Of a stretch of 64,000 nucleotides of DNA, positions 27,734 to 57,039 are shown piece after piece (within the stretch, counting starts at the first letter, position 1; the number at the start of each line of letters is the position of its first letter). The notes below the pieces were generated by a model. It did not search any database. It saw only the letters and a list, made by a program, of their open reading frames with translations, and was not told the origin of the DNA. The translations under genes and the position numbers were made by a program. The stretch is from Alphaproteobacteria bacterium. GTDB taxonomy: Bacteria; Pseudomonadota; Alphaproteobacteria; VGDZ01. The stretch covers positions 18,804 through 82,803 of the forward strand of contig VGDZ01000003.1 of assembly GCA_016869515.1 (NCBI GenBank), given 5' to 3'.

Positions 27734-28750
27734 TCAGTTGAAACGCGGGTTCTCGATCAGATGGCAGGCGGCCTGGTGGCCCTCGCCGACCGCCACCGGC
27801 TGCGGCGCGACCTCGCGGCACAGCGTGCCGGCGTGCCGACAGCGGGGGTGGAAGTGGCAACCGCGCGGCGGGTCTATCGGGTTGGGCACCGCGCCCGGCA
27901 GGGCGATGCGCGCGCGCCGGCGTGGGCCCATCGCCGGCACCGCCGCCATCAGCGCCTGGGCATAGGGGTGCCGCGGCGAGTCGAGCACGGCGCGCGCCGG
28001 GCCGATCTCGACGATGCGGCCGAGATACATCACCGCCACGCGCCGGCAGATATGGCGCATGGTCGACAGGTCGTGCGAGACGTAGAGGATCGCCATCGCC
28101 TGCTCCTCGGCGAAGCGGCGCAGCAGGTTCAGGATTCCGGCCCGGATCGAAATGTCGAGCATCGACACCGGCTCGTCGGCCACCAGGAAACTGGGCTCGA
28201 CGGCGATGGCGCGGGCGATGGCGACGCGTTGCAATTGGCCGCCGGAAAGCTGATGCGGAAAGCGCTCGAGATAGGTCGCGACCGGACTAAGGCCGGCGCG
28301 CTCGAGCGCGCGCACTATTCGTTCCCGGCGTCCCGCCGGGCTGTCGTCGAAATGAATCGCCACCGGCTCGCCGACCGCGTCGGCCACGGTGAAGCGCGGA
28401 TTGAGCGCCTCATAGGGGTTCTGGAACACGATCTGGGCGCGGCGGCGGAATGCCTTGAGCCGCGCGCCCGAAAGTCCGGCGGTATCTTCGCCTGCAAATC
28501 GGATCTCGCCGGCGCTGGGCGAGAGCAGGCGCAGCACCGTCATGCCGGTGGTCGACTTGCCGCAGCCGCTTTCGCCGGCGAGGCCCAGCACTTCGCCCGG
28601 GACCAGGCTGAAGCCGACGCCGTCGACCGCGCGCACATGGCGTTCGACGGCGCCGGCCAGAGTCGCAATCAGGCCGCGCCGCACCGGAAACCATTTGCGC
28701 AGCGCCTCGACCGCGATCACCGGGGCGGGCCCCGGCGCCGGTGCGCTCAC
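27734..28750 (-). CDS. Dipeptide/oligopeptide-type ABC transporter ATP-binding protein (DppF/OppF-like)
   Basis: GTG 28750 overlapping upstream gene stop (GTGA); Walker [10 protein letters not shown], signature LSGGQLQRVAIARAI, Walker B LVADEPVSMLD; the upstream 160 aa of the track ORF are out-of-frame overlap. Confidence 0.8.
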   Translation of the reverse strand: MSAPAPGPAPVIAVEALRKWFPVRRGLIATLAGAVERHVRAVDGVGFSLVPGEVLGLAGESGCGKSTTGMTVLRLLSPSAGEIRFAGEDTAGLSGARLKAFRRRAQIVFQNPYEALNPRFTVADAVGEPVAIHFDDSPAGRRERIVRALERAGLSPVATYLERFPHQLSGGQLQRVAIARAIAVEPSFLVADEPVSMLDISIRAGILNLLRRFAEEQAMAILYVSHDLSTMRHICRRVAVMYLGRIVEIGPARAVLDSPRHPYAQALMAAVPAMGPRRRARIALPGAVPNPIDPPRGCHFHPRCRHAGTLCREVAPQPVAVGEGHQAACHLIENPRFN

Positions 28751-29688
28751 GGCCGGAAGCCGATCGAGCCCTCGTAACGTCGCTGCATCTCTTCGGTCGG
28801 CAGGTACTGTTCCTCGAGCTTGCGGATCGCGGGGAAGCCGACAAAGGTATGGAAATCGGCCGCCGGGTGGCCGTTGAGTTCCGGCTTGAGCCGCTCCTCC
28901 AGCGCCGCGTCCTCGCGCGCGAAATCGTGCAGATAGTCCCACATCGCCCGCGCCGCGGCGCGCATCGCGCCGCCGGCATTGGCGACCAGGAACACCTTCA
29001 TCTGGTTCATCTCGGCCAAGGTCAGGTTGGGCGAAACCCCGGTCCGGTTGTAGAGCAGCGGCGCCTTGACCTCGCGCGCCACCCGCTCCATCTCGGCGCG
29101 GCTCAGCAGGCCCTCGGGAAAGAACACGTCCATGCCGGCGTCGATGTAGGCCTTGCCGCGGCGGATGGTCTCTTCGAGGCTGCCGCCGGCAACGCCGCGC
29201 GCATCGCAGCGCGCGATCAGCACCACGTCCTTGTCGCAACGATCGCGCGTCGCCACCGCGGCGCGGTACTTGCCGACCGCTTCCTCCAGCGAGATGATCT
29301 GCTTGCCCGAGACGTGGCCGCAGCGCTTGGGCGCGACTTGGTCCTCCATGAACATGCCGCCGACGCCGGCCTTGATGAACTGCTCGACCGTGCGGATGGC
29401 GTTGATGGCGTTGCCGTAGCCGGTGTCGGCGTCGGCCATCACCGGAATGTCGACCGCATCGCAGACATAGCCGGTGACTTGCACCACCTCGCTCATCGTC
29501 GTCAGGCCGACATCGGGCTTGCCGATCAGCGTCGCCGACAGCGAATAGCCCGAGACGCCGACGGTCTCGAAGCCGGCCTTTTCGGCGATCTGCGCCGACA
29601 TGGCGTTGAACACGCCCGGCTGCACGTAGGTCTTGCCGCCCCGCAGCATTTCGCGGAAACGACGGGACATGCCCTTGAGTCCGGCCAT
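28747..29688 (-). CDS. PEP mutase / isocitrate lyase superfamily enzyme, paralog 3
   Basis: ATG 29688 (MAGLKGM); motifs DADTGYGN, FMEDQ, KRCGH; source gene of the remnant at 11855..11975. Confidence 0.8.
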   Translation of the reverse strand: MAGLKGMSRRFREMLRGGKTYVQPGVFNAMSAQIAEKAGFETVGVSGYSLSATLIGKPDVGLTTMSEVVQVTGYVCDAVDIPVMADADTGYGNAINAIRTVEQFIKAGVGGMFMEDQVAPKRCGHVSGKQIISLEEAVGKYRAAVATRDRCDKDVVLIARCDARGVAGGSLEETIRRGKAYIDAGMDVFFPEGLLSRAEMERVAREVKAPLLYNRTGVSPNLTLAEMNQMKVFLVANAGGAMRAAARAMWDYLHDFAREDAALEERLKPELNGHPAADFHTFVGFPAIRKLEEQYLPTEEMQRRYEGSIGFRP

Positions 29689-29874
29689 CGGCGCCCTCCC
29701 TTGGCGATCGATCAAGATCGAGCGATGAGTGTCAAAAGCGCGCCTGGGCGAGTCAACCCGATTTTTCCCCATGACTGCCTGGCGAAAATAGGGTTGCCGA
29801 CAGCCGTGCATGTGCCCGTTCCGGGACTAGAATGGACCTCCGGCAACGAGGCCGATCGTCTTCGGGGAACGCAC

Positions 29875-31287
29875 ATGACCGGACCACGGACATTCTTCGA
29901 GAAGGTTTGGAGCGATCACGTCATCGCCGACCTCGGCGACAACACCGCGCTGCTGCAGATCGACCGGCTGTTCCTGCACGAGATGAGCGGCTCGGTGGCG
30001 ATGCGGCAGCTGGCCGAGTCCGGTCGCGAGCCGGCCATGCGCGAGCTGGTGTTCACCGTCATCGACCACGTCATCGACACCGCGCCCGGGCGCGGGCTCG
30101 ACCAGTCGCGCTCCAAGGCCGGCCCCGAGATGATCCGCGCGGCACGCGCGGGGTCGCGCAGATACGGATTCAATTTCGTCGACGTCGACGATCCCCGCCA
30201 GGGCATCGTCCACGTCATATCGCCCGAGCTGGGCGTGGCCTTGCCTGGATTGACCCTGGTTTGCGGCGACAGCCATACCTGCACCGTCGGCGGCGTCGGC
30301 GCGCTGGCCTGGGGCATCGGCTCGACCGAGGGCGAGCACGTGCTGGCGACGCAGACCCTGCCGCAAGTCAGGCCCAAGGCGATGCGGGTCAATTTCGAGG
30401 GCAAGCCGGCGAAGGGGGTCTATCCCAAGGACATGGTGCTGGCGTTGATCGGCAAGATCGGCGCCAATGGCGGCATCGGCTATGCGGTCGAGTTCGCGGG
30501 ATCGGCGATCCGCGAAATGCCGGTCGAGGGGCGGTTGACGATCTGCAACATGGCGATCGAGTTCTCGGCCAAGTACGGCTTCGTCGCGCCCGACGAGATC
30601 ACCATCGACTATCTCAAGGGCCGCGAATATGCGCCCAAGGGTGCGGCTTGGGAGGCGGCGGTGCGCTATTGGCGATCCCTGCCCAGCGATCCCGGCGCGC
30701 GTTTCGAACACGAAGTCACGGTCGACTGCGGCGGGTTGAGCCCGCAGGTCACCTGGGGCACCAGCCCGCAGCAGGTGGTCGGCATCGACGGCCGCGTGCC
30801 CGACCCGGCGTCGGCCGACGATCCCGGCACGCGGACGCTGATCGAACGCGCGGCCGAATACGCCAAGCTCAAGCCCGGCCAGCCGATCCAGGGCGTCAAG
30901 ATCGACGTCGCCTATATCGGCTCCTGCACCAATGCGCGGCTGTCGGATCTGCGCGTGGCGGCGAACGTTCTCAAGGGCAAGCGCATCGCCGGCGGCGTGC
31001 AGGGCATTTGCGTTCCCGGCTCGACCGCGGTCAAGCGTGCGGCCGAGGCCGAGGGTCTCGACCGCGTGTTTCGCGATGCCGGCTTCGAATGGCACGAATC
31101 CGGCTGCGCCATGTGCGGTCACATGGGCAACGACCGGCTGGCGGATTTGCGCGTGATCAGCACCACCAACCGCAATTTCGAGGGTCGCCAGGGGCCGGCC
31201 ACCCGCACCCATCTCGCCAGCCCGGCGACGGTGGCGGCGTCCGCGCTGCGCGGACAGATCGCCGACGTCCGCGGCCTGATCGGCTAG
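29875..31287 (+). CDS. 3-isopropylmalate dehydratase large subunit-like (LeuC, ~470-aa bacterial type)
   Basis: ATG 29875; motifs VCGDSHTCT, IGSCTNARLSD and CAMCGHMG (Fe-S ligands). Confidence 0.85.
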   Translation: MTGPRTFFEKVWSDHVIADLGDNTALLQIDRLFLHEMSGSVAMRQLAESGREPAMRELVFTVIDHVIDTAPGRGLDQSRSKAGPEMIRAARAGSRRYGFNFVDVDDPRQGIVHVISPELGVALPGLTLVCGDSHTCTVGGVGALAWGIGSTEGEHVLATQTLPQVRPKAMRVNFEGKPAKGVYPKDMVLALIGKIGANGGIGYAVEFAGSAIREMPVEGRLTICNMAIEFSAKYGFVAPDEITIDYLKGREYAPKGAAWEAAVRYWRSLPSDPGARFEHEVTVDCGGLSPQVTWGTSPQQVVGIDGRVPDPASADDPGTRTLIERAAEYAKLKPGQPIQGVKIDVAYIGSCTNARLSDLRVAANVLKGKRIAGGVQGICVPGSTAVKRAAEAEGLDRVFRDAGFEWHESGCAMCGHMGNDRLADLRVISTTNRNFEGRQGPATRTHLASPATVAASALRGQIADVRGLIG

Positions 31288-31296
31288 GCGCGCACC

Positions 31297-31944
31297 ATGG
31301 AAAGCCTGGTGCGGATCAAGGGCGTGGCGGCGCCGCTTTTGCGCATCAATGTCGATACCGACCAGATCATCCCGGGGCCCGAGATCATGGCCTCGGTCGA
31401 CGAGAGCTATGCGCGCTGGGGCACCGGCCTGTTCGCTTATTGGCGCTATCTCGACGGCGCCGGTGGGGCGCACACGCCGAATCCCGAGTTCGTCCTCAAC
31501 CGGCCGCCCTATGACCGCGCCGTGATCCTGCTGGCGGACCGCAATTTCGGCTGCGGCTCCTCGCGCGAGCCGGCACCCAAGGCGCTGCGCGGCTTCGGAA
31601 TCCGTGCCGTGATCGCGCCGTCCTTCGGCGGCATCTTCTTCAACAACTGTTTCCGCAACGGGGTCCTGCCGATCGAGCTGTCGATCGAAGCGGTGCGCGA
31701 ACTGGCGGGCCAGGTCGAGCGCTCGCAAGGGCGCGGCGAGATATCTGTCGACCTGGAAGCCCAACGCATCACCGCGCCCGAAGGCGACGGCTACGGCTTC
31801 AGGACGCCGCCCTTGTTGCGACGCATGCTGCTCGAAGGCCTGGACGAGATCGGCGCCACGCTGGCTCGGCGCGGCGAGATCGAAGGTTTTCGCGGTCGAG
31901 ACCGATCGCGACGTCCCTGGGCCTATCGGCCCGGACTGGCTTGA
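31297..31944 (+). CDS. 3-isopropylmalate dehydratase small subunit-like (LeuD), copy 1
   Basis: 215 aa; NFGCGSSRE, APSFGGIFFNNCFRNG. Confidence 0.85.
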   Translation: MESLVRIKGVAAPLLRINVDTDQIIPGPEIMASVDESYARWGTGLFAYWRYLDGAGGAHTPNPEFVLNRPPYDRAVILLADRNFGCGSSREPAPKALRGFGIRAVIAPSFGGIFFNNCFRNGVLPIELSIEAVRELAGQVERSQGRGEISVDLEAQRITAPEGDGYGFRTPPLLRRMLLEGLDEIGATLARRGEIEGFRGRDRSRRPWAYRPGLA

Positions 31945-31955
31945 GAGGTGCCGCC

Positions 31956-32585
31956 ATGGAAAAACTGACCAAGATCTCGGCCATTGCCGCGCCGATGCTG
32001 CGCATCAACATCGACACCGACCAGATCATTCCCGCCCGCTTTTTGGTTCGCGTCACCAATGACGGCCTGGGCGAGGGCCTGTTTGCCGGCCAGCGCTACG
32101 GACGCGACGGCAAACCCAATCCCGACTTCATTCTCAATCGCGCGCCTTACGATCGCGCCGAGATCCTGCTGGCCGACCGCAATTTCGGCTGCGGCTCCTC
32201 GCGCGAGGCGGCGCCGATGGCGCTGCGGCAACGCGGCTTCCGGGCGGTGATCGCGCCCTCCTTCGGCGGCATCTTTTTCAACAATTGCTTTCGCAACGGC
32301 GTCGTTCCGGTCGAGCTGCCGATCGAGGCGGTGCGGCAGATCGCGGCCGAAGTCGAGGCGACGCAGGGCCAGGGCAAGGTCGGCGTCGATCTCGAAGGCG
32401 AGGCCGTGACCACGCCCAGCGGCGCGGTGTTCAAGTTCCGCTCGCCGCCGCTATTGCGCGAAATGCTGTTGGCGGGGGCGGACGAGGTCGATCTGACCCT
32501 GCGCCGCGGCGAACAGATCGGCGACTTTCGCGGCAAGGACTCGGCCAAGCGTCCCTGGGCCTATCGGCCGGGTCTGGCGAACTGA
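31956..32585 (+). CDS. 3-isopropylmalate dehydratase small subunit-like (LeuD), copy 2 (tandem duplicate)
   Basis: ATG 31956 preceded by GAGAGG; near-identical core motifs to copy 1 (NFGCGSSREAAP, APSFGGIFFNNCFRNG). Confidence 0.8.
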   Translation: MEKLTKISAIAAPMLRINIDTDQIIPARFLVRVTNDGLGEGLFAGQRYGRDGKPNPDFILNRAPYDRAEILLADRNFGCGSSREAAPMALRQRGFRAVIAPSFGGIFFNNCFRNGVVPVELPIEAVRQIAAEVEATQGQGKVGVDLEGEAVTTPSGAVFKFRSPPLLREMLLAGADEVDLTLRRGEQIGDFRGKDSAKRPWAYRPGLAN

Positions 32586-32622: not shown

Positions 32623-33852
32623 ATGACCGACGCGCAACGTCTTGCCGCGGGAGTCGATCCGCGCCGCGCGCTCGACTTTCTTGCCGCGATGGTTCGCCAC
32701 AAGAGCTACAGCAATACGCCGGGTGAGACCGAGCTTGCGCGCTTCATGGTGGCGGAAATGCAGAAACTCGGCATGGATGCGCGCCTGCAGCCGGTCGAGG
32801 GCGAGCGCTGCAACGCCATCGGCGTGTGGAAGGGCACGGGCGGCGGCAAGAGCCTGCTGTTCAACGGCCATCTCGATACCAATCCCGTCACCGGCGGCTG
32901 GACGGTCGATCCCTGGGGCGGGTTGGTAGACGACAAATTCATTTACGGCATCGGCGTCTCCAACATGAAGGCGGGCGACGCCGCTTATTTCTGCGCCGTG
33001 CGCAGCTTGATCGAGAACGGCGTTCGGCTGCGCGGCGACGTCGTCCTGACTTATGTTGTCGGCGAGTTGCAGGGCGGGGTTGGCACCATCAAGGCGATCG
33101 AAGCGGGCATTCGTGCCGATTATTTCATCAATGCCGAGCCGACCGACATCGCTGCCCTGACCTTGCACGCCGGCGCGTTCAACTGGACGGTCGAGCTCGA
33201 AGGCGTCACCCGCCACGTCTCCAAACGCGAGCAGGCCTGCGATGCGCTGCAGGCCGCGTCGGTGCTGGTGCCGCGACTGAACGCGCTTGAATTCAGCGGC
33301 GCCGCCAGCGAGGAGCACCGAGCCGTCAACCGCTGCCATGTCGGCGTGATGCGTTCGGCGCTGACGCCGGAATTCCACGATTGGCGCCCGCCGCAGGTAG
33401 CCGATTTCGCGCGACTGATCGGTACCGGTCGCTACGCCCCCAGCCAATCCGAGGACAGCGTCCTGGCCGACATTCGCCGCGAACTTGATTGGTTGCAACG
33501 CGAGTTTCCCGGCCTCAAGGCCAAGGTCGAACGCCAGCGCACCGGCCAGGTACAGCGGGCCTCGATGCTGCCCTTCGAGGTCGACCGATCCAGCCCGATC
33601 GTGCAGGCGATCAACGCCGCCCATCGGGCCGTCCGCCGAACGCCGCAGCCGACCGGTGCGATCGCGCCGCAATGCTATTACGGCACCGATGCCGCGCACC
33701 TGCAGCATCGCGCCGGAATGCAAGGCATCGTCTGCGGCCCGGGCGGCCGTTACAACACCATGCCCGACGAACGTGTGGACATTGTCGACTATCTCGACGC
33801 CGCCAAGATCTATCTCTTGACCGTGCTCGACATCTGCGGCCGGTCCGCCTAG
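32623..33852 (+). CDS. M20-family metallopeptidase / deacylase (ArgE/DapE/ACY1-like)
   Basis: 409 aa; metal-binding motifs NGHLDT, GVSNMKAG, and C-terminal YGTDAAHL. Confidence 0.8.
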   Translation: MTDAQRLAAGVDPRRALDFLAAMVRHKSYSNTPGETELARFMVAEMQKLGMDARLQPVEGERCNAIGVWKGTGGGKSLLFNGHLDTNPVTGGWTVDPWGGLVDDKFIYGIGVSNMKAGDAAYFCAVRSLIENGVRLRGDVVLTYVVGELQGGVGTIKAIEAGIRADYFINAEPTDIAALTLHAGAFNWTVELEGVTRHVSKREQACDALQAASVLVPRLNALEFSGAASEEHRAVNRCHVGVMRSALTPEFHDWRPPQVADFARLIGTGRYAPSQSEDSVLADIRRELDWLQREFPGLKAKVERQRTGQVQRASMLPFEVDRSSPIVQAINAAHRAVRRTPQPTGAIAPQCYYGTDAAHLQHRAGMQGIVCGPGGRYNTMPDERVDIVDYLDAAKIYLLTVLDICGRSA

Positions 33853-33915
33853 ACCGCGATTCACGGTTTGCATGGAATCGCCGACGCTGTTCCATGCAAA
33901 CCGTGAATCGCGGTC
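33852..33915. terminator. Perfect 26-bp-stem / 12-nt-loop hairpin immediately after the M20 peptidase stop codon (terminator or protein-binding palindrome)
   Basis: gaccgcgattcacggtttgcatggaa-tcgccgacgctg-ttccatgcaaaccgtgaatcgcggtc read directly; no U-tract follows. Confidence 0.55.
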
Positions 33916-33942
33916 CAGGGCGGGATCCGAGGGCATGAGTCA

Positions 33943-33978
33943 CGCTCGGTCTCGAACCATGGGGTTCTAGACCGAGCG
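33943..33978. promoter_or_regulatory. 16-bp near-perfect inverted repeat containing GAACC-N4-GGTTC, 22 bp upstream of the GntR start: candidate autoregulatory operator
   Basis: cgctcggtctcgaacc-atgg-ggttctagaccgagcg with one mismatch. Confidence 0.45.
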
Positions 33979-33999
33979 ATCTTGCCCTAGACTGACGTC

Positions 34000-34761
34000 A
34001 TGGCGCGAGTTGGAAAACCGCGCGGCTCGAGCCGGCGCGACCACTTCGGCGATGCGGTCTACGCCCAGATCAAGGCCGACATCTTCGACTTTCGCCTGCT
34101 GCCCGGCGCCCGCTTCTCGGAAAACGAGGTCGCCCGGCGGGCGCGCGTTTCGCGCACGCCGGTGCGCGAGGCACTGATGCGGCTCGAGCGGGAGGGCTAT
34201 CTTCAGGTCCACGCCAAGAGCGGTTGGAGCGTCTGCCCGCTCGATTTCGCGCAGTTCGACCACCTCTACGACCTGCGCGTCGTGCTCGAACTGGCGGCGG
34301 TGCAGAAGCTGTGCGCCGGCAAGGACATCGCCGCCCTCGATCGGCTGCGTGCGATCTGGCTGGTGAGTCCGTCCCTGCGCGTGGTCGACGGCGCCAAGCT
34401 GGCCCGGATGGACGAGGAGTTCCACTCGACCCTGGTCGCCGCCGCCGGCAATCCCGAAGTCGCGCGCATCCATCACGGCATTACCGAGCGCATCCGCATC
34501 CTGCGGCGGCTCGACTTCACTCATCCCGAACGCATCATCTACACCTATCGCGAACACGCCGAGATCCTGCGCGCGCTGCTGGCGCGCGACGCCGATCGCG
34601 CCTCGGCTTTGTTGCGCGCGCATATCGAGGCCAGCCGGGCGGTGGTGCAGACCATCACCCTGCACCGGCTGCACCTTGCGCATCTCGATGCCAAACCGTC
34701 TGCCAGGACCAACGGGGCCGCACGCAAGCCGGCCGCCGCGCGTGCCCCTCGCCGGCGCTAG
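34000..34761 (+). CDS. GntR-family transcriptional regulator (FadR/FCD subfamily)
   Basis: N-terminal wHTH (EVARRARVSRTPVREAL) and helical FCD-type C-terminal domain. Confidence 0.85.
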   Translation: MARVGKPRGSSRRDHFGDAVYAQIKADIFDFRLLPGARFSENEVARRARVSRTPVREALMRLEREGYLQVHAKSGWSVCPLDFAQFDHLYDLRVVLELAAVQKLCAGKDIAALDRLRAIWLVSPSLRVVDGAKLARMDEEFHSTLVAAAGNPEVARIHHGITERIRILRRLDFTHPERIIYTYREHAEILRALLARDADRASALLRAHIEASRAVVQTITLHRLHLAHLDAKPSARTNGAARKPAAARAPRRR

Positions 34762-34783
34762 GGCATGATCCGCAACCCGCCTT

Positions 34784-34849
34784 GAACCGCGCGGTTCACG
34801 GCCGATCGCCAATGTCCTGGGCCGCGATCGGTCCCGAACCTTGCGGTTC
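34784..34849. promoter_or_regulatory. Two further GAACC-N4-GGTTC palindromes (34784..34797 gaaccgcgcggttc; 34836..34849 gaaccttgcggttc) upstream of the NCS2 permease gene
   Basis: Read directly; same half-sites as the motif upstream of the GntR gene. Confidence 0.45.
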
Positions 34850-34876
34850 AAGACCGATCGATCCCGCCCCTGCCGA

Positions 34877-36229
34877 CTACTCTTCCTTGGGGAAGACCAG
34901 GTTCAGCCCCATCGCCAGCATGATGCCCATGACGATGCCGTCGGTGACGAGGATGCGCAGCGCCTGCGGGATGGCGTCGAACGCCCCCGGCGGCGCCGCC
35001 TGAATCCCCAAGCCCAGCCCCAGCGAGGCGGCCAGGATCAAGGCGTCGCGGCGCGAGGTCATGTTGCGGCCGATGATGTCGATGCCGACCGAGGCCACCA
35101 TCCCGAACATGAACAGCAGCACGCCGCCCAGCACCGCGTTCGGCATCAGGGCGATGATCGCTCCCACCTTCGGCACCAGCGCCATCAGGATCAGGAAGAA
35201 GCCGCCGAAGGCGACGACGAAGCGGCTGCCGACGCCGGTCAGCGAGATGACGCCGATGTTCTGCGAATAGGACGTCAATGCCATGCCGCCGAACAGGGCC
35301 GACAGCGTCGAGCCGATGCCGTCATTCGAGACCGCGCCGCGGATGCGCCAGCCTTCGGCCGGAACGCCGCAGATGCGCGATACCGCCAGGGTATGGCCGG
35401 TGGTCTCGACCGCGGTGGCGAAGAAGCACACCACCACCGCAATGATGCCGACGATGCCCGGCCATTCCAGGCCGCCATAGGGAAACGGCATCGGCACCGC
35501 GATCCAGTCGGCCTTGCCGACCGCGCTGATGTCGATCAGGCCGGCCGCGGCGGCGACGAGATAGCCGATGATCATGGTCACGAACAGCGACAGCGCGCGC
35601 ACGAACCCCTTGGCAAAGCGGCTGATGACCAGGATCAACACGATCATCAGCGCCGCCAGGCCGATGGTCAGCGGCTTGCCGAAGGCGGGCGTGCCGAAAC
35701 CCGAGGCGACGTTGATGCCGATCTTCATCAGACCGGTGCCGATCAGCAGGATGGTGGTGCCGGTGACGATCGGCGGGAAGAAGCGATGCAGTCTGCCGAT
35801 CAGCGGACTCCAGGCGAACTGCACCAGGCCGCCGATCATCAGCGCCGTCATCGCCGCCGCCAGGCTTACGTCCTTGGCGATGGCGACCATGGGGCCGATG
35901 AAGATGTAGAACACGCCCATCACGATCGGCAGGCGCGGCCCGATGAAGGACATGCCCAGCGCCGAAATCATGGTGGCGACGCCGCAGCCGATCATGGTGC
36001 CCGAGACCATCAGGATGCGGGTCTCTTCGGACAGGTTGAGCAGCCGCCCGACGATCAGCGGTCCGCCGACCATGGCGGTGAACATCACCAGCACGTGCTG
36101 AATGCCGAACAGCGCGGTCTTGACCGGCCCGGGATAGTCGTTCAGCTCGTAGTCGAGCTTGACGAAACCGCGATCGCCCCCGTGTCCGCCATGCGCTTGC
36201 GCGGCGGCTGCGTTTTCTTGGCTGCTCAT
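34877..36229 (-). CDS. Nucleobase:cation symporter-2 (NCS2) family purine/xanthine/uric-acid-type permease
   Basis: 450 aa with about 12-14 TM segments; NCS2-like glycine-rich TM composition. Confidence 0.8.
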   Translation of the reverse strand: MSSQENAAAAQAHGGHGGDRGFVKLDYELNDYPGPVKTALFGIQHVLVMFTAMVGGPLIVGRLLNLSEETRILMVSGTMIGCGVATMISALGMSFIGPRLPIVMGVFYIFIGPMVAIAKDVSLAAAMTALMIGGLVQFAWSPLIGRLHRFFPPIVTGTTILLIGTGLMKIGINVASGFGTPAFGKPLTIGLAALMIVLILVISRFAKGFVRALSLFVTMIIGYLVAAAAGLIDISAVGKADWIAVPMPFPYGGLEWPGIVGIIAVVVCFFATAVETTGHTLAVSRICGVPAEGWRIRGAVSNDGIGSTLSALFGGMALTSYSQNIGVISLTGVGSRFVVAFGGFFLILMALVPKVGAIIALMPNAVLGGVLLFMFGMVASVGIDIIGRNMTSRRDALILAASLGLGLGIQAAPPGAFDAIPQALRILVTDGIVMGIMLAMGLNLVFPKEE

Positions 36230-38055
36230 GGTTTATCCTTCCCTTCCTTGACGAAATTGCGCCAGCTGCCGAGATTCGAAATATCCCACGCCGCGCGCAC
36301 GGCGTGGGCCTCGCACAAGAACCCTTTGACCTGGGTGCCGTCTTCCAGCGCCACCGTTCCGATGCCCAGCGGCGCCGGAATGCCGTCGACGAAGCCGCCG
36401 AAGCCGGCGGCCGGCACCTCCCACACCTCGACCTCGATCGACGCGCCGGACTCGGCGCGCACCAGGCCCGGTCGCGGCGGCGAGAACTCGGTCAAGGCGT
36501 AGAAGCGATAGAGCGGCGCCGTCCGGCATTTGCGCGCCAGCCGCCCGCCGCGCTCGGTCAGCTGGTGGTTGAGCGGCAGCCCCGACATGTGCGCTCCGCA
36601 CACCGCGACCTGGATGGTGGCGTTCGCCTTGGCCGGCGCGGCCAGCGTCGCCGGTCGCCCCGACGGCAAGGCCGTTCCGGTCGCGCCCATGGTGCCGCCC
36701 GCCGCCCGCTGCAGCGCGTCGGCCAGGACGCACAGCGATTCGTCGGCGAAGGCCGGGGCGATCAGGGTGATGCCGAAAGGCAGCCCGTCGGCTTGAAAGC
36801 CCGCCGGCAGCGCGATCGCCGACAGGTCGAGCAGGTTCATGAAATTGGTGTAGTGGCCAAGATTGCTGTTGGTGCGGATCGGATCGGCTTCGACCTCGGA
36901 GATCCGGTAGATGGTTCCCGCGGTCGGCGTCACCAGGATGTCGAATTCGTCCCAGACCGGCGCGGTCTCCCGCCGCAGCGCCTTCAAGCGATCGAACGCG
37001 GCGAACGCATCGACCGCGGTGAAGCGCGTCGCCCCGCCGATGATCTTCCGCGTCACCGGGTGCAGCGCCTCGGGCCGTTTTTCGATGAAGTCGCGGATGG
37101 CGACATAGCGCTCGGCTACCCAAGGCCCTTCGTAAAGCAGCCGCGCGGTGGCGAAGAACGGCGCAAAATCCACCTCCGCCCTCTCGGCCCCGAGCGCATC
37201 CAGTCGCGCCATCGCCTGTTCGAACAGGCCGGCGGCGTCGCGGTTGCCGAAGAACTCCAATTGATTCTTGCGCGGCACGCCGATGCGGAGACCTGCGAAC
37301 GCGATCGGCACAGCCCCATGGCCAGCGCCTCGATCCGGGCGCGAATAGGGGTCGGCAGCATCGAACCCGCGCGCCACCCGCAACACCGACGCCGCGTCGG
37401 CCGCGGTCAAGGCGAAGATCGACACGCAATCGAGCGACCGGCAGGCCGGCACGACCCCACGCGTGCTAAGCAGCCCGCAGCTGGGCTTGAGTCCGATCAG
37501 GTTGTTGAACGCCGCCGGCACTCGACCGGAGCCGGCGGTGTCGGTGCCGAGCGCGAAGCTGGCAAGCCCGGCGGCGACCGCGATCGCCGAGCCCGAGCTG
37601 GAACCGCCCGGGACATAGTCCGCATCGAAGCTGTTGGCGGGCACGCCATAGGGCGACCGCACGCCGACCAGGCCGGTGGCGAACTGGTCGAGATTGGTCT
37701 TGCCGATGGGGATCGCCCCCGCCGCCACCAGTTTTTCGACCACCGGCGCCGAGCCGCCCGCGAGGTAGCGGAAATCCGGGCAGCCGGCGGTGGTGGGGTG
37801 CCCGGCGAGGTCGATGTTGTCCTTGATCGCGAAAGGGATGCCGTAGAGCGGCAGACCGTCCGGCCCGCGGCGCTCGAGTGCCGCAGCCTGGGCCCGCAAG
37901 GCGTCGTCGGCCAGGCGGTGGATCCAGACCTTGTCGTCGCCGCGCCTGGACAGCCGCCGCAGCAATCCCTCGACCATCTGGCTTGGACGCAGCGCCCCGG
38001 CCCGATACCGCGCGCCGAGCGTATCCAGGTCGAGCGAGTCCCCCTCATCCAGCAT
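36226..38055 (-). CDS. Allophanate hydrolase-like protein (amidase-signature domain plus C-terminal AtzF-type domain)
   Basis: Start at MLDEGDSLDL (ATG 38055) because the track start at 38112 is a TTG inside the upstream palindromic region; amidase-signature stretch GGSSSGSAIAVAAGLASFALGTDTAGSGRVPAAFNNLIGLKPS; about 600 aa as expected for allophanate hydrolase. Confidence 0.8.
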   Translation of the reverse strand: MLDEGDSLDLDTLGARYRAGALRPSQMVEGLLRRLSRRGDDKVWIHRLADDALRAQAAALERRGPDGLPLYGIPFAIKDNIDLAGHPTTAGCPDFRYLAGGSAPVVEKLVAAGAIPIGKTNLDQFATGLVGVRSPYGVPANSFDADYVPGGSSSGSAIAVAAGLASFALGTDTAGSGRVPAAFNNLIGLKPSCGLLSTRGVVPACRSLDCVSIFALTAADAASVLRVARGFDAADPYSRPDRGAGHGAVPIAFAGLRIGVPRKNQLEFFGNRDAAGLFEQAMARLDALGAERAEVDFAPFFATARLLYEGPWVAERYVAIRDFIEKRPEALHPVTRKIIGGATRFTAVDAFAAFDRLKALRRETAPVWDEFDILVTPTAGTIYRISEVEADPIRTNSNLGHYTNFMNLLDLSAIALPAGFQADGLPFGITLIAPAFADESLCVLADALQRAAGGTMGATGTALPSGRPATLAAPAKANATIQVAVCGAHMSGLPLNHQLTERGGRLARKCRTAPLYRFYALTEFSPPRPGLVRAESGASIEVEVWEVPAAGFGGFVDGIPAPLGIGTVALEDGTQVKGFLCEAHAVRAAWDISNLGSWRNFVKEGKDKP

Positions 38056-38093
38056 CGATTGGCCCTTGGCGAAGTTCCCTGATCCGGCACTAG

Positions 38094-38124
38094 TATACAA
38101 CATGGTATACAAAGCAACCTATAC
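38094..38124. promoter_or_regulatory. Low-GC divergent promoter region with repeated GTATAC-type GntR-like boxes between the allophanate hydrolase and fdrA genes
   Basis: tagtatacaacatggtatacaaagcaacctatacagatat: GTATAC at 38094 and 38105, CTATAC at 38119. Confidence 0.4.
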
Positions 38125-38154
38125 AGATATTGGGACCGGTGCTAGAGTTTGTTC

Positions 38155-39693
38155 ATGGTGAGCGCGACCCGGATCTTCCCCAACCTCTACCGCGACTCCA
38201 TCTCCCTGATGCAACTATCGGCCGTGCTGGCGGCGCGGCCGGGCATCGACAACGTCTCGGCGGTGATGGCGACGCCGGCCAATTTGGCGCTGCTGGCCGA
38301 GGCGGGATTGGCGCCGGGCCGCGTCGCCGCCGGACCCAACGACCTGCTGATCGTCGCCCGCGGCAAGGACTCGGCGGCGGTAACGGCGGCGCTCGATGCC
38401 GCCGCCGCCGAGATCGCCAGGCCGACCGTTGCCGCCGCCGGCGTCGCTGGTCCGAGTCTGCCGCGCAGCCTGCGCTCCGCCCGGCTGCAGGTTCCGGCCG
38501 CCAATCTGGCGCTGGTTTCGACCCCGGGCGAATACGCCGCCGCCGAGGCGATGAAGGCGTTGCGCCTGGGCCTCAACGTCATGCTGTTCAGCGACAACGT
38601 GGATCTCGACGACGAGGTCGCGCTCAAGCGCCTGGCCAAGGCGCGCGGGCTGATGGTGATGGGGCCCGATTGCGGCACCGCCATCGTCAACGGCGTTCCG
38701 CTCGGCTTCGCCAATGCGGTGCGACGCGGCGCGATCGGCGTGGTCGGCGCCTCGGGCACCGGCACCCAGCAGGTGACTTGCCTGGTGCACCGGCTCGGCG
38801 CCGGCATTTCCCACGCCATCGGCACCGGCGGCCACGACCTCAGCCGCCGGGTGGGCGGCATCACCATGGTGCAGGGCATCCGGGCGCTGGCTGCCGACCA
38901 GGCGACCAAGGTCATCGTGCTGATCTCCAAGCCACCGGCGCCGGAGGTGGCGCGGGCCGTGCTCAAGGCGGCCAGAAACTGCGGCAAGCCGGTGGTGGTG
39001 AACTTCATCGGCGCCGCGCCGGACAGCGTGCGCGGCCAGAATCTGCATGTCGCCGCTACCCTCGATCACGCGGCCCGCGTCGCCGTCGCCCTGGCGCAAG
39101 GAGGCGCGCCGCCCGGCCCCGATCTCGGGCAGCTGCCGCCGGTGCGTCTCGGCCCCATGGCCGCCGGCCAAAGATACGTTCGCGGCCTCTATAGCGGCGG
39201 CACCTTCTGCTACGAGGCATCCGCCATGCTGGGCGCTGCGCTGGGGACGGTCTGGTCCAATGCGCCGGTCGATCCCAGGCGGCGGCTGGGCGATGCCCGC
39301 AAGTCGAAGGGCCATACCCTGATCGACCTCGGCGACGACGCATTCACCCGCGGCCACCCGCATCCGATGATCGACTTCCGCCTGCGCAACGAACGCCTCT
39401 TGCGCGAGGCCGAGGATGCGGAAGTGGCGGCGATCGTGCTCGACGTGGTGCTGGGCTTCGGTGCCCACCCCGATCCGGCGGCCGAACTGGCGCCGGTGAT
39501 CGAAAAGGCGCGGGCGACCGTGCGCCGACGGGGTCGCGAGATCGCCGTGGTCGGCTTCGTTTGCGGGACCGAACTTGACCCGCAAGGTTTGGACCGCCAG
39601 GCAAATGCGCTGCGTTCCGCCGGCATGATCCTGACCGAAAGCAATGCGCAGGCGGCGCGGCTGGCTGCGTCGATTGCAGGAGGGCGCCGATGA
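38155..39693 (+). CDS. fdrA: FdrA-family protein (CoA-binding/succinyl-CoA-synthetase-like; oxamate carbamoyltransferase-associated)
   Basis: About 510 aa with FdrA-like architecture (N-terminal domain plus CoA-ligase-like repeats, GPDCGTAIVNG, VGASGTGTQ); ATG 38155, track start TTG at 38149. Confidence 0.75.
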   Translation: MVSATRIFPNLYRDSISLMQLSAVLAARPGIDNVSAVMATPANLALLAEAGLAPGRVAAGPNDLLIVARGKDSAAVTAALDAAAAEIARPTVAAAGVAGPSLPRSLRSARLQVPAANLALVSTPGEYAAAEAMKALRLGLNVMLFSDNVDLDDEVALKRLAKARGLMVMGPDCGTAIVNGVPLGFANAVRRGAIGVVGASGTGTQQVTCLVHRLGAGISHAIGTGGHDLSRRVGGITMVQGIRALAADQATKVIVLISKPPAPEVARAVLKAARNCGKPVVVNFIGAAPDSVRGQNLHVAATLDHAARVAVALAQGGAPPGPDLGQLPPVRLGPMAAGQRYVRGLYSGGTFCYEASAMLGAALGTVWSNAPVDPRRRLGDARKSKGHTLIDLGDDAFTRGHPHPMIDFRLRNERLLREAEDAEVAAIVLDVVLGFGAHPDPAAELAPVIEKARATVRRRGREIAVVGFVCGTELDPQGLDRQANALRSAGMILTESNAQAARLAASIAGGRR

Positions 39694-41096
39694 ATCCGCT
39701 GCTCTCGGCGCCGCTGTCGGTGCTCAATGTCGGCGTCGGTTCCTTCGCCGACGCCATCGCGTCCCAAGGCGGCACGGCGACGCGAATCGATTGGACCCCG
39801 CCCGCGCAGGGCGATCGGGCCGCCGGCATGGCGCTTGCCCGCTTGGTCAACCATCCCAGGATCGAGGCCGCCAACGCCAAGGCCTATCGAAAGCTTGTGG
39901 CGGCGCAGCCGCGGCTGATCGGAATCGGCGTCGCCGGCAAGACCTTGCCGGGCATAGGCCGGCGCATGATCCTGCACGCCGGGCCGCCGATCGCATGGGC
40001 GCGCATGTGCGGCCCGATGCAGGGCGCCATCATCGGCGCCATCCTGTTCGAGGGCTGGGCGACCAGCGCCGCCAAGGCGCGGGCGCTGGCGGCCAGCGGC
40101 AAGATCGGCTTCGCGCCTTGTCATCATCACGGCGCGGTCGGCCCAATGGCCGGCATCATCAGCCCCTCGATGCCGGTGTGGGCGATCGAGAACGCCGCCG
40201 GCGGCAACCGCACCTACAGCAATCTCAACGAGGGCCTGGGCAAGGTGCTGCGCTTCGGCGCCAACGGCGCCGAAGTGATCGAGCGCTTGCGCTGGATGAG
40301 GACCGTCCTGGCGCCGACCCTGCAGGCCGGCCTCGCGCGCCTCGGTCCGGTCGAACTCAAGCCGCTGATGGCCCAGGCCCTGCACATGGGCGACGAAGTG
40401 CACAACCGCAACGCCGCCGCGACCTCGCTGCTGATCAAGAAGCTGGCGCCGGCGCTGCTCAAGAGCGGCGCGGCATCGGCCGACATCGCCGCCACCATCG
40501 AGTTCATGGCCGGGACCGACCACTTCTTTCTCAACCTGTCGATGGCGGCCTGCAAGGCGATGCTCGACGCCGCGCACGGCGTGCCCTACAGCAGCCTGGT
40601 GACGACCATGGCGCGCAACGGCGTCGATTTCGGGATCCGCGTCGGCGGGCTGGGCCGCCGCTGGTTCACGGCGCCGGCGCCGGTAGTCGACGGACTCTAT
40701 TTCGCCGGCTACGCGATGGCCGACGCCGCCGCCGATCTCGGCGACAGCGCCATCACCGAGACCGCCGGCATCGGCGGCTTCGCCATGGCGGCGGCGCCGG
40801 CGATCGTCAAGTTCGTCGGCGGCACCGCCGCCGATGCCTTGGCCAACACCGTGGCGATGACCCACATCACCCTCGGGCGCAACAACGCCTTCACCCTGCC
40901 GGCGCTGGATTTCGCCGGCACGCCTTGCGGCATCGATGCGCGGCTTGTGGTCGACACCGGCATCCTGCCGGTGATCAACACCGGCATCGCCCACAAGGCG
41001 CCGGGCGTGGGCCAGATCGGTGCCGGCGTCACCCGCGCCCCGCTTGCCTGCTTCACGCAGGCCGTGACGGCGCTGGCAGCCGCGGTCAAGGGCTAG
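39690..41096 (+). CDS. DUF1116-family protein (YlbE-like)
   Basis: ATG overlapping the fdrA stop (ATGA); 468 aa; gene order fdrA-DUF1116-carbamate kinase as in enterobacterial fdrA-ylbE-ylbF-arcC clusters. Confidence 0.7.
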   Translation: MNPLLSAPLSVLNVGVGSFADAIASQGGTATRIDWTPPAQGDRAAGMALARLVNHPRIEAANAKAYRKLVAAQPRLIGIGVAGKTLPGIGRRMILHAGPPIAWARMCGPMQGAIIGAILFEGWATSAAKARALAASGKIGFAPCHHHGAVGPMAGIISPSMPVWAIENAAGGNRTYSNLNEGLGKVLRFGANGAEVIERLRWMRTVLAPTLQAGLARLGPVELKPLMAQALHMGDEVHNRNAAATSLLIKKLAPALLKSGAASADIAATIEFMAGTDHFFLNLSMAACKAMLDAAHGVPYSSLVTTMARNGVDFGIRVGGLGRRWFTAPAPVVDGLYFAGYAMADAAADLGDSAITETAGIGGFAMAAAPAIVKFVGGTAADALANTVAMTHITLGRNNAFTLPALDFAGTPCGIDARLVVDTGILPVINTGIAHKAPGVGQIGAGVTRAPLACFTQAVTALAAAVKG

Positions 41097-41103
41097 CGCC
41101 GTC

Positions 41104-55682: not shown

Positions 55683-55834
55683 CAGGCTGCTGAAAAACTT
55701 GGTGGGAATGGTGAAACACGAAACGAAAGAATCGTGGCGTGCGTAACGACGAAAGATCAGAATCGAAAGTCGATCCATTTTGATTCAATGTTGCTCGCTG
55801 ACACGCCTCGAAACCCTTATTCAGCAGCCTGCTA
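55678..55834. mobile_element. MITE-like element: 16-bp perfect terminal inverted repeats (ctagcaggctgctgaa / ttcagcagcctgctag) flanking ~125 bp of low-GC sequence with GAAAGAATC-like reiterations
   Basis: Read directly; the left inverted repeat overlaps the dctM stop codon; interior cgaaacgaaagaatcg...cgaaagatcagaatcgaaagtcgatcc. Confidence 0.4.
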
Positions 55835-56050
55835 GCGCCCATAACAGGGAAACTGTCCGAGCGAACACGGAATTCGCGCTATCGAGCAGGGATTCAAACT
55901 CCGACCAGGCACCGGGCAAATGCGTCGCCGAATTTTCTTTGCTTTGTCTGTCTTCTCTGCGGTCGAGTCCGTGAGGATAGAGTGGCCGCATGGCTGAATC
56001 CGCCCACTCCATCACCATTGCCGCAGCCCCATTTTGGACACTGGCCGGGA

Positions 56051-56842: not shown

Positions 56843-57039
56843 CGACCCGGCAGGCACACGAACCCCTTGTACGAACGTTGTTATTTGAATTTGGATTATA
56901 ACACACAGAAATCTGATCAGAAAATGCTTTATTTACGAATGTCGTTCTGTTATAGGCCATTTTATGAATAACCAGGTGGCGCCGCTCAACGCCAAAAAAG
57001 CTGAACGGAACCGCGGAACCGACTGGGAGCAAGTTCGCA

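Follow-up and report, generated by a model that had tools for sequence, protein, structure and literature searches.

A two-hairpin, CTAG-bounded repeat as the probable source of a perfect palindrome after an M20 peptidase gene in an uncultured alphaproteobacterium

The perfect 26-bp palindrome directly downstream of an M20 peptidase gene in a 64,000-nucleotide stretch of alphaproteobacterial DNA (the window) is probably the first of two stem-loop modules in a non-coding, CTAG-bounded repeat of about 142 bp that belongs to a REP/MITE-like family. The carrier of the repeat is likely to be an uncultured, GC-rich alphaproteobacterium with a family of palindromic intergenic repeats. As found, the family comprises 2 copies of the first module (hairpin 1) in 2 contigs, 4 copies of the hairpin-2 type, and 1 fragment. 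Since the element recurs beside unrelated genes, it is read as a genomic repeat of the REP/MITE-like kind and not as a locus-specific signal. A preliminary description of this DNA had proposed that multiple copies would point to a generic repeat; such copies were found, one in a second contig (L083) and relatives within the window, and the idea of a locus-specific signal is abandoned here. Thus, a striking palindrome at a gene end would be a generic repeat, and its annotation as a terminator or operator for the operon is unwarranted. The elements would make up a family of two-hairpin, CTAG-bounded repeats, not described before, from an uncultured lineage of Alphaproteobacteria. The features are as follows.

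33849 to 33990, plus strand: composite repeat, copy A, 142 bp, consisting of CTAG, hairpin 1, a linker, hairpin 2, and GATCTTGCCCTAG
33850 to 33852, plus strand: TAG stop codon of the M20 peptidase gene (ORF 32623-33852), inside the left CTAG of the element and the base of the extended stem
33852 to 33915, plus strand: hairpin 1, perfect 26-bp arms and a 12-nt loop, from reading of the sequence and a repeat finder
33916 to 33942, plus strand: linker CAGGGCGGGATCCGAGGGCATGAGTCA, from reading of the sequence
33943 to 33978, plus strand: hairpin 2, with a 4-nt loop between 16-bp arms, CGCTCGGTCTCGAACC atgg GGTTCTAGACCGAGCG
33978 to 33990, minus strand: right terminus motif CTAGGGCAAGATC, ending 9 nt before the gntR ATG
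34000 to 34761, plus strand: gntR, a GntR/FCD regulator gene that has inverted copies of the terminus motif on either side; context, outside the repeat
34758 to 34870, minus strand: element C, a rearranged relative in inverted orientation; it has the same termini and two stem-loops of the hairpin-2 type, without hairpin 1
50546 to 50563, plus strand: remnant D, an 18-nt copy of the element terminus (CTAGGGCATGATCGCTCG)

Structure of the repeat and its copies

Of the 147 bp that separate the M20 peptidase stop codon from the gntR start, copy A takes up nearly all. In hairpin 1, the left arm (33852-33877, GACCGCGATTCACGGTTTGCATGGAA) has its exact reverse complement at 33890-33915, and the 12-nt loop between the arms reads tcgccgacgctg. 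Because G33852 is also the last base of the peptidase TAG, hairpin 1 abuts the stop codon, as the preliminary description had stated. The stem can be extended to 30-nt arms with one mismatch (33848-33877 / 33890-33919), and this extended stem covers the whole TAG. The C-terminus of the peptidase is as long as that of its orthologues (tblastn matches to residues 405-409 of 409; comparison with locus L003).

The RNA fold of 33848-33919 has an energy of -57.6 kcal/mol, compared with -18.8 +/- 2.7 for shuffled sequences (z = -14.2); as single-stranded DNA, the extended stem folds at -36.4 kcal/mol (z = -12). Just three perfect inverted repeats with arms of at least 20 nt are present in 1.05 Mb of related GC-rich DNA. 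With up to 3 mismatches allowed, the 26-mer of hairpin 1 occurs at two sites only in the 64-kb window (100 dinucleotide shuffles, used as a control, gave 0 matches). The suggested search for other 26-mer copies thus yielded none further in the window, and it was in L083 that a copy of the element was found. Against Rfam 15, hairpin 1 gave only sub-threshold, generic microRNA-precursor matches that are typical of any long hairpin; no Rfam match in the window reached the gathering threshold, and a search for tRNA and tmRNA found none.

The right half of the element has its own symmetry. Within the linker, a motif that mirrors the right terminus in inverted orientation (AGGGC..GATC / GATC..GCCCT) occurs twice in tandem, and in the RNA fold of 33916-33990, CAGGGCGGGATC is paired with GATCTTGCCCT. 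The CAGGGGCGGGATC motif of this linker is also found at the end of element C. The hairpin-2 module carries imperfect inverted ends of 11-13 nt of this same pattern. Similarity between the outer ends of the composite element is weak, and they form no convincing terminal inverted repeats. The terminus motif CTAGGGCAWGATC is present 3 times in the window, versus 0.11 expected. Homology between the arms of hairpin 1 and hairpin 2, which have GATTCACG in common, was considered and rejected as not significant (z about 1-3). The coding content of copy A is a 14-codon ORF only, and the two differences between copies within this ORF are both non-synonymous. Over its last ~19 nt, copy A is similar to the leader conserved among gntR orthologues (14/19 positions).

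Copy B was found by a 19-mer scan of metagenome contigs. Positions 1-139 of contig L083 align with 33849-33990 over all 142 columns, the homology ends exactly at the right CTAG, and nhmmer gives E values of 2e-49 for copy A and 3e-48 for L083. An M23 peptidase gene, encoded on the opposite strand, has its stop codon directly beside copy B; gntR is not the neighbor of this copy, and the contig begins exactly at the first CTAG of the element. The other matches of the scan, 5 of 6 (L084-L088), are chance or unrelated and have the 19-mer alone in common. Between the two copies, hairpin 1 differs by one loop substitution and one 3-nt indel (67 columns), and the attached module by 13 further changes. 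This unusual contrast in conservation between modules could serve for studying how palindromic repeats spread and how they remain perfect.

The near-identical copy in L083 excludes an assembly artefact. Fold-back chimeras, whether from assembly or amplification, can yield perfect palindromes, and the contigs of an independent Logan assembly (L001/L002, SRR7985589) do break at the position of hairpin 1. However, that assembly has exactly the same hairpin sequence as the NCBI/JGI contig, the diverged copy (with its 3-nt indel, loop substitution, and 13 further differences) lies in a separate contig with different flanks, and the genes flanking hairpin 1 are intact and in frame. A chimeric fold-back is effectively refuted.

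Element C, with stem-loops at 34773-34814 and 34822-34863, fills the 115-bp interval that separates the stop codon of gntR (34759-34761) from that of a convergent permease gene (34877-34879), and its minus strand folds into a single long hairpin (-67.7 kcal/mol). The distance between these stops is 0 nt in the orthologous locus L092 and 6 nt in L091, and in L093 the two genes overlap, versus 115 nt here, the presence or absence of the element being judged against these three loci of distant orthologues (GntR 75-81% identity). A native spacer, tgccga, still adjoins the permease stop beside element C. Thus, element C provides a clean comparison of a filled with an empty site for one family member. 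Remnant D lies within the last codons of a minus-strand succinyl-CoA-ligase-alpha-like gene.

Over the four hairpin-2-type copies, 89% of cells are paired, compared with 19-44% in slid controls; compensatory change is present, with 4 pairs altered on both sides, and in the window a covariance model of hairpin 2 matches these copies only. The copies are located 3' of genes (A, M20 peptidase; B, M23 peptidase) or between convergent genes (C). Of the candidates in the preliminary description, it is the REP-like palindrome that is upheld: the ~142-bp composite recurs in L083, and relatives and a fragment are present at two other sites in the window.

Locus-specific readings of the peptidase-gntR junction

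In intrinsic terminators, a U-tract follows a GC-rich stem of about 5-14 bp. Hairpin 1 is like them in being a GC-containing stem-loop right after a stop codon, and a locus-specific terminator or operon boundary, selected to part the peptidase operon from gntR, would fit its position between co-directional genes, its great stability (-57.6 kcal/mol), and the second strong hairpin downstream. A promoter scan detected none of the sigma-70-like kind for gntR, which could make control of read-through important. Hairpin 1 differs from an intrinsic terminator in its missing U-tract, in a stem two to four times the usual length, and in its repetition in unrelated loci. The remark that the stem exceeds typical terminator length and has no U-tract was correct: inspection of both strands revealed no T-run 3' of hairpin 1, and a terminator scan did not call it. 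Furthermore, a 142-bp element of identical layout is present beside the unrelated M23 peptidase gene in L083, and no comparable hairpin follows the M20 stop in any of 80 orthologue loci (up to 72% identity). Because there is no U-tract and the same element is present in unrelated loci, termination is not considered the reason for the hairpin. A selected terminator is therefore unlikely, and the earlier proposal of a strong terminator or operon boundary is not supported.

The boundary between gene modules that had been noted at this position is a genuine break in synteny. In 0 of the 80 M20 peptidase orthologue loci is gntR the neighbor, and the module of gntR, permease, and allophanate hydrolase genes is conserved at other loci that have no such element. 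This lineage-specific junction is consistent with hairpin 1 being a single-copy palindrome at a recombination or rearrangement breakpoint, either as the site or as a by-product of the event by which two catabolic modules were joined, and L083 would then be the same locus, in a relative, with another right-hand partner. The L083 sequence starts at the element, and hairpin 1 was seen in two contexts only (copies A and B, in two contigs). Because the left flank of L083 lies beyond the contig start, the single-copy reading retains some probability for hairpin 1. However, the attached hairpin-2 module is multi-copy within the contig, the Logan graph branches on the arm of hairpin 1, and the scanned ORFs of the window include no integrase or recombinase. 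An attC site contains R''/L''...L'/R' sites with RYYYAAC / GTTRRRY cores and extrahelical bases, and intI is nearby. Hairpin 1, in contrast, is a bulge-free, perfect stem with the ends GACCGCG / CGCGGTC and no R''/R' core sites of this type. A breakpoint palindrome is quite improbable, and the suggested dedicated recombination site, with neither attC core motifs nor an integrase or recombinase gene nearby, finds no support.

The perfect dyad lies beside a regulator gene, related palindromes flank gntR on both sides, and symmetric (compensatory) changes are also expected of a site bound by a dimer. These features would suit a palindrome bound by a protein, as the operator of the neighboring GntR/FCD regulator or as the site of some other dimeric DNA-binding protein. 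GntR-family operators, however, are dyads of about 12-20 bp around GT-Nx-AC, and the 26-bp arms are far longer. The same element is located 3' of the M23 peptidase gene in L083, no similar palindrome is present upstream or downstream of gntR orthologues (75-81% identity), and element C, between two stop codons, has no obvious use as an operator. Together, these observations make an operator very unlikely. Hairpin 2 by itself was also considered as a GntR operator and rejected, as it is missing from the orthologous gntR loci and present beside the M23 peptidase gene.

Relation to known palindromic repeats

REP super-families of Enterobacteria and Pseudomonas carry, at one end of a 20-40-bp palindrome, a GTAG or CGTC tag that is conserved and unpaired; they are biased in location toward the 3' side of genes and toward the intervals between genes that are unidirectional or convergent (Di Nocera et al. 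2013, PMC3733652). The element described here is like REP and BIME sequences in that it is short, non-coding, palindromic, extragenic, and located 3' of genes; its copies are mosaics of different stem-loops in which palindromy is kept, and they may act as RNA hairpins once transcribed. Unlike REPs, it has neither tag, since hairpin 1 ends in CTAG / CCAG and the hairpin-2 module in CAGGG / CCCTAG. Its stems of 26 bp (hairpin 1) and 16 bp (hairpin 2) contrast with REP stems of 8-9 bp in the alphaproteobacterial CGTC families or roughly 10-15 bp in others. In addition, the arms of hairpin 1 are not palindromes themselves, two copies of hairpin 1 are present in two contigs, and no associated RAYT was seen in the window.

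A more specific possibility is a REPIN, an inverted REP doublet mobilized by a RAYT, a Y1 HUH transposase that acts on single-stranded DNA hairpins. REPINs are long hairpins with two identical inverted arms and a short spacer (PMC3337134), an architecture that hairpin 1 matches, and the extragenic position 3' of genes and the maintained palindromy are also as expected. However, the single arms of hairpin 1 form no significant hairpin as single-stranded DNA (-2.8 and -4.0 kcal/mol, z about -1), the ends are CTAG / CCAG in place of GTAG / CGTC, and a RAYT gene, which could lie elsewhere in the genome, is absent from the window; no transposase, RAYT, or Y1 transposase was found among the about 45 ORFs scanned there. 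These differences render a REPIN improbable.

The Correia repeat enclosed elements (CREE) of Neisseria are MITEs that fold into long hairpins; in transcripts, these hairpins bind or are cut by RNase III, and the expression of neighboring genes is altered (PMC2649163). By analogy, a similar RNase III effect on neighboring genes is plausible for the present element. According to Tenzen & Ohtsubo (1991), as cited in PMC2170065, IS630 inserts at the TA within CTAG. At 142 bp, non-coding, and with ends that pair, the element is like a MITE (<300 bp), and the TA-containing CTAG on both sides of copies A and B is like that of MITEs derived from IS630/Tc1. The comparison of a filled site with empty orthologous loci, available for element C only, is a further likeness. 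The differences are that the ends of the composite are only weakly inverted repeats of each other, the element being built instead from two internal hairpins, that element C is without TA/CTAG on one side, and that a parent IS with matching ends is not known.

RIMEs, the intergenic mosaic elements specific to Rhizobium (Osteras et al. 1995), and the Sinorhizobium Sm-repeats, or AB and C palindromes, are large palindromes with conserved sequence and secondary structure, to which the summary in PMC2573895 assigns no function. As summarized there, they resemble the present family in being alphaproteobacterial intergenic mosaics built of large palindromes. As for sequence, the element had no match in a plasmid and megaplasmid collection that includes rhizobial replicons or in the 80 alphaproteobacterial loci, the comparison with RIMEs being by description.

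Wider searches likewise returned no further copies. A 21-mer of the hairpin 1 arm has 0 matches in 185,579 representative genomes, and an nhmmer profile of copies A and B found nothing in the 80 M20 orthologue loci (~0.95 Mb of related MAG loci). When 33000-35000 was compared by megablast with a plasmid collection, the sole match was the peptidase coding region (77% identity), and a distant blastn search of the element against plasmids and megaplasmids, rhizobial replicons included, gave no match. In viral contigs, an 18-mer of the hairpin 1 arm had 0 matches, a 14-mer of the terminus had 46, all by chance, and the profile had none. The copy number of the element may be small. When closer relatives with an exact empty site were sought, the nearest GntR was 81% identical and the nearest M23 peptidase 58-62%, which is not strain-level similarity.

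Possible origin and effects on mRNA

CTAG is rare in this DNA (26 per 64 kb in the window vs 52-194 expected), and 6 of the 26 sites are at or within elements. The element ends fall on this rare tetranucleotide, and three overlap a TAG stop codon; copies A and B each have a CTAG at either end, and C has one at a single end. The element, or hairpin 1 separately, may have inserted at a CTAG composed of the last base before the M20 stop and the stop itself. Without the element, the junction would be gcCTAGactgacgtcATG, placing the peptidase stop 9 nt before gntR. The insertion model predicts that an element-free M20-gntR junction in related strains would read ...CTAGACTGACGTCATG, and under TA-in-CTAG insertion the empty site would read gcCTAGACTGACGTCATG. 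Because the permease side of element C has no TA/CTAG, insertion at TA within CTAG does not fit some of the ends.

Spread would presumably depend on a trans-acting enzyme encoded outside the window. A DDE transposase of the IS630/Tc1 type that targets TA/CTAG is a tentative best guess; the gene of the mobilizing enzyme, whether of the IS630/Tc1, IS5, or RAYT type, would be flanked by GACCGCGATTCACGG... or ...GATCATGCCCTAG. The perfection of hairpin 1 would reflect a young or homogenized repeat, not one needed by the locus.

A bolder possibility, and a rather doubtful one, is that hairpin 1 itself is a young, still-active palindromic mini-transposon that targets CTAG and is nested in the CTAG-like end of an older hairpin-2 MITE. 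Such nesting would account for the roughly tenfold better conservation of hairpin 1 between copies, relative to the attached module. In a GC-rich genome, the CTAG targets of a mini-transposon would mostly be TAG stop codons preceded by C, and its insertion, or recombination between copies, would have joined the M20/aconitase-like module to the gntR-ureide module. Since the native leader of gntR would then have been displaced, gntR would be expressed by read-through past a hairpin that sequesters a stop codon and is sensitive to RNase III.

For the composite repeat preferred here, effects on mRNA are likely to be incidental. Once transcribed, a perfect stem of 26-30 bp would very probably have side effects on the 3' ends of mRNA. 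The RNA duplex would probably sequester the M20 stop codon, block 3' exonucleases and so stabilize the upstream mRNA, and reduce read-through into gntR without canonical intrinsic termination. It would also be a plausible substrate for RNase III.

The Logan contigs, assembled at k=31, have an overlap of exactly 30 nt that falls on hairpin 1's right arm, and the assembly graph has a branch point on the hairpin 1 arm itself. The 30-nt overlap and the start of L083 on the first CTAG are indirect hints of more copies of the element. Repeats of this kind break metagenome assemblies at their own borders, as in the two assemblies here, which matters for binning and scaffolding in this lineage.

Structure and setting of the hairpin

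The inverted repeat at the end of the M20 peptidase gene (hairpin 1, 33852-33915) is real and far beyond chance. Its left arm (GACCGCGATTCACGGTTTGCATGGAA, 33852-33877) is separated by a 12-nt loop, tcgccgacgctg, from an exact reverse complement at 33890-33915, and the perfect stem opens with the G of the peptidase TAG stop codon. Direct reading of the sequence and a repeat finder agree with the preliminary description throughout (26-bp arms, 12-nt loop, abutting stop codon, no U-tract); the repeat finder also ranks hairpin 1 as the top inverted repeat of the 64-kb window and extends its arms, with one mismatch, to 30 nt (33848-33877 and 33890-33919). RNA folding of 33848-33919, a check that had been proposed, yields -57.6 kcal/mol versus -18.8 +/- 2.7 for shuffles (z = -14.2), and the ssDNA fold -36.4 kcal/mol. 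Folded alone, the single arms form no hairpin of their own. Elsewhere in the window the 26-mer has no match at up to three mismatches, and shuffled sequence contains none either. Perfect inverted repeats whose arms reach at least 20 nt number only three in 1.05 Mb of comparable GC-rich DNA.

The other two, from about 1 Mb of related loci, lie at L012:11834-11922 (Tistlia consotensis) and L066:7766-7830; with arms of 31 and 20 nt around loops of 25-27 nt, they look like other alphaproteobacterial palindromic repeat families. The 10-mer that opens hairpin 1, CTAGACCGCG, also occurs without a hairpin at 22959-22968, where a minus-strand gene has its stop codon; this could be a preferred target context or a chance occurrence (rough p about 0.02). 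A 14-codon ORF (MQTVNRGPGRDPRA, 33894-33938) begins within the right arm and is also open in the second copy of the element (L083:46-90). It is probably meaningless, since the two copies differ in it at two positions, both non-synonymous, and a Shine-Dalgarno sequence is absent.

Features around hairpin 1 and its relatives in the window

5' of the M20 peptidase gene, +: aconitase-large-subunit-like gene and two aconitase-small-subunit-like genes
32623-33852, +: M20 peptidase ORF, 409 aa, Pfam PF01546
33943-33978: hairpin 2, 16-nt arms, in the same 147-bp spacer as hairpin 1
33978-33990: CTAGGGCAWGATC motif, inverted, just before gntR
34000-34761, +: gntR, GntR/FCD regulator (MBM3567420.1)
34758-34770: CTAGGGCAWGATC motif, overlapping the gntR stop codon
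34758-34870: element C, inverted, rearranged relative, 113 nt
34877-36229, -: xanthine/uracil-family permease gene
36226-38112, -: allophanate hydrolase gene
Beyond allophanate hydrolase: AllF/FdrA-like, AllG and carbamate-kinase-like genes
50546-50558: CTAGGGCAWGATC motif
50546-50563: terminal fragment, 18 nt, 17/18 identical to the end of the copy before gntR

The spacer from the peptidase gene to gntR is 147 bp, and that from gntR to the permease gene 115 bp. Upstream, the aconitase-large-subunit-like gene and the two tandem genes for aconitase C-terminal-domain (small-subunit-like) proteins occupy 28741-32585 and, with the M20 peptidase gene, form an unusual hydratase/isomerase cluster. 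Downstream, the module of gntR, permease, allophanate hydrolase, AllF/FdrA-like, AllG (oxamate carbamoyltransferase subunit) and carbamate-kinase-like genes (34000-42051) is conserved, with identical gene order in a distant JGI contig (L092:684-8568; GntR 76% identical), and looks like a ureide or N-heterocycle catabolic cluster controlled by GntR. The gntR orthologue on contig L090 neighbours AtzD/TrzD, amidase and hydantoinase genes. Farther along, GC falls to 0.59-0.60 at 55000-57000; two minus-strand ORFs there (55821-56606 and 56835-57377) have no Pfam match and are flanked by a TRAP transporter operon on one side and by hydantoinase A/B genes on the other.

A second full copy and the two hairpin modules

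Hairpin 1 is a module within a non-coding, palindromic repeat element located at gene 3' ends. A 21-mer of its arm matches none of 185,579 representative genomes. When JGI metagenome contigs were scanned with a 19-mer, six loci emerged, five of which have the 19-mer alone in common. The contig L083 (Ga0194120_10142124; 1450 bp, 70% GC) contains the equivalent of all of 33849-33990, so the proposed search for other copies recovered the whole element in a different gene context. Both copies (A in the window, B in L083) consist of CTAG, hairpin 1, a linker CAG(G/A)GCGGGAT(C/A)CGAGGGCATGA, hairpin 2 and GATC(T/A)TGCCCTAG, and the alignment spans all 142 columns (nhmmer E about 1e-48). Similarity stops exactly at the right-hand CTAG. 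Beyond it the window runs into the gntR leader, and L083 into an opposite-strand M23 peptidase gene, entered from its 3' end; the stop codon of that gene is the CTA of the CTAG. Thus, by comparison of right flanks (L083 starts precisely on the element's first CTAG), the composite element is present in at least two different gene contexts. Two Logan contigs that cover the window locus (SRR7985589; k = 31) share, at the end of one and the start of the other, exactly 30 nt of the right arm (33889-33918), which marks a branch node in that sample's assembly graph. That two independent assemblies, the Logan contigs and L083, break at the element is an indirect hint of further copies in those samples.

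The two modules have diverged unevenly. Across CTAG and hairpin 1 (67 columns), copies A and B differ by a single loop substitution and by a 3-nt deletion that B carries in one arm, versus 13 substitutions in the remaining 75 nt (Fisher p = 0.0017). Within hairpin 2, three of the differences between A and B are full compensatory pair changes. Element C supplies two of the four hairpin-2-type copies, A and B one each; over all four, 89% of cells are paired versus 19-44% in slid controls, and four pairs are altered on both sides; palindromy is thus maintained across copies. A covariance model of hairpin 2 matches, in the window, only the known hairpin-2-type copies. The arms of hairpins 1 and 2 have GATTCACG in common, with no significant overall similarity. 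Set against the diverged hairpin 2 module, the close match between the hairpin 1 copies suggests either that hairpin 1 is under much stronger constraint or that it was a recent, independent insertion into an older hairpin-2 element, at the CTAG-like left end of the latter.

Relatives in the window and orthologous sites

In the window, three occurrences of the 13-nt motif CTAGGGCAWGATC compare with 0.11 expected. One occurrence belongs to element C, in the gntR-permease spacer. This element consists of the same terminus (CTAGGGCATGATC), two stem-loops of the hairpin-2 type and the linker motif CAGGGGCGGGATC, which stands at the far end. Element C lacks hairpin 1, and its minus strand folds into one long hairpin (-67.7 kcal/mol). 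At 50538-50563, the last six codons of a minus-strand succinyl-CoA-ligase-alpha-like gene (D H A L A P, stop) are encoded by a repeat-terminus fragment, GATCATGCCCTAG; the coding 3' end seems to have taken up the end of a repeat.

Sequence comparison shows relatives of the element at positions where orthologues are empty. The comparison used the contigs that encode GntR homologues of 75-81% identity. L092 has the gene order of the window (gntR, permease, allophanate hydrolase, AllF-like, AllG, carbamate kinase), and its gntR and permease stops abut (0 nt); the stops are 6 nt apart (cgccgg) in L091, and the genes overlap in L093, versus 115 nt in the window. Judged against these loci, therefore, element C is an insertion. 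The window gap is all element C except its last six bases, tgccga, which are similar to the L091 spacer. For element A, the 13 nt from the right CTAG to the gntR ATG match the L090 and L093 leaders at 10/13 positions, which places the right boundary of the element at that CTAG. At 80 loci with M20 peptidase orthologues, neither a comparable hairpin nor this gntR follows the peptidase gene, so the M20/gntR junction is evidently a lineage-specific synteny break, filled by element A; at the closest orthologue locus, the next gene begins 31 nt past the stop.

The last ~19 nt of element A (33969-33990) resemble the conserved leaders of gntR orthologues (L090:9965-9985 and L093:1050-1070; 14/19), and copies in unrelated contexts also finish with this terminus. 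The likeness could be coincidence, a target preference, or a terminus derived from a gntR leader.

Proposed insertion, class membership and possible RNA effects

CTAG is strongly avoided in the window, with 26 observed versus 52 (first-order Markov) to 194 (base composition) expected, yet 6 of the 26 lie at or in repeat elements. About eight of the 26 are TAG stop codons after C. CTAG forms both ends of copies A and B and one end of element C, and overlaps a TAG stop codon in three cases (M20 peptidase, gntR and the L083 M23 peptidase). The TA within CTAG is a target of some IS5-family groups. Deleting copy A and one CTAG in silico leaves gcCTAGactgacgtcATG, with the peptidase stop at the orthologue position, 9 nt before gntR; tentatively, this is the product expected of insertion into TA within CTAG, the target given for IS630 (Tenzen & Ohtsubo 1991, as cited in PMC2170065). 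The insertion model is tentative because the permease side of element C lacks TA/CTAG, the outer ends of the composite element are weak inverted repeats, and there is no transposase or RAYT among about 45 window ORFs. We infer, with moderate confidence, that the element reached the M20 site by insertion at the stop-codon CTAG, and that hairpin 1 would be perfect because it is young or homogenised.

Several identities were weighed. An intrinsic terminator, proposed earlier as a locus-specific signal, is not supported, given the missing U-tract (hairpin 1 has no T-run after it on either strand, and a terminator scan of the window made no call there) and the same sequence at unrelated loci. Nor is the suggested recombination site, be it attC or another dedicated type: the stem is perfect and free of bulges, it has no RYYYAAC/GTTRRRY cores, and the window ORFs scanned include no integrase. 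If the suggested protein-binding palindrome is taken as a GntR operator, the arm length is far too great, the element stands at gene 3' ends elsewhere, and orthologous gntR loci lack it. Neither tags nor stem lengths fit GTAG- or CGTC-tagged REPs, and the arms are not themselves palindromes as in REPINs. Matches to known RNA families are sub-threshold and microRNA-precursor-like, as is usual for any long hairpin. An assembly artefact is countered by an independent assembly with the same sequence and by the diverged second copy. Tests of membership thus failed for GTAG/CGTC REPs, REPINs, attC sites and terminators; those for MITEs passed in part. What gained support is the broader REP-like suggestion, a repeated palindromic element with a second gene context at gene 3' ends, and we rate the element as belonging to the general class of palindromic intergenic mini-repeats and as working like them.

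REPs can stabilise mRNA, and RNase III requires about two helical turns of duplex. In the peptidase transcript, a 26-30-bp duplex would sequester the stop codon, would hinder 3' exonucleases and would be a candidate RNase III substrate; it would also lower read-through into gntR. The models for these effects are REPs (PMC3733652) and Correia elements (PMC2649163).
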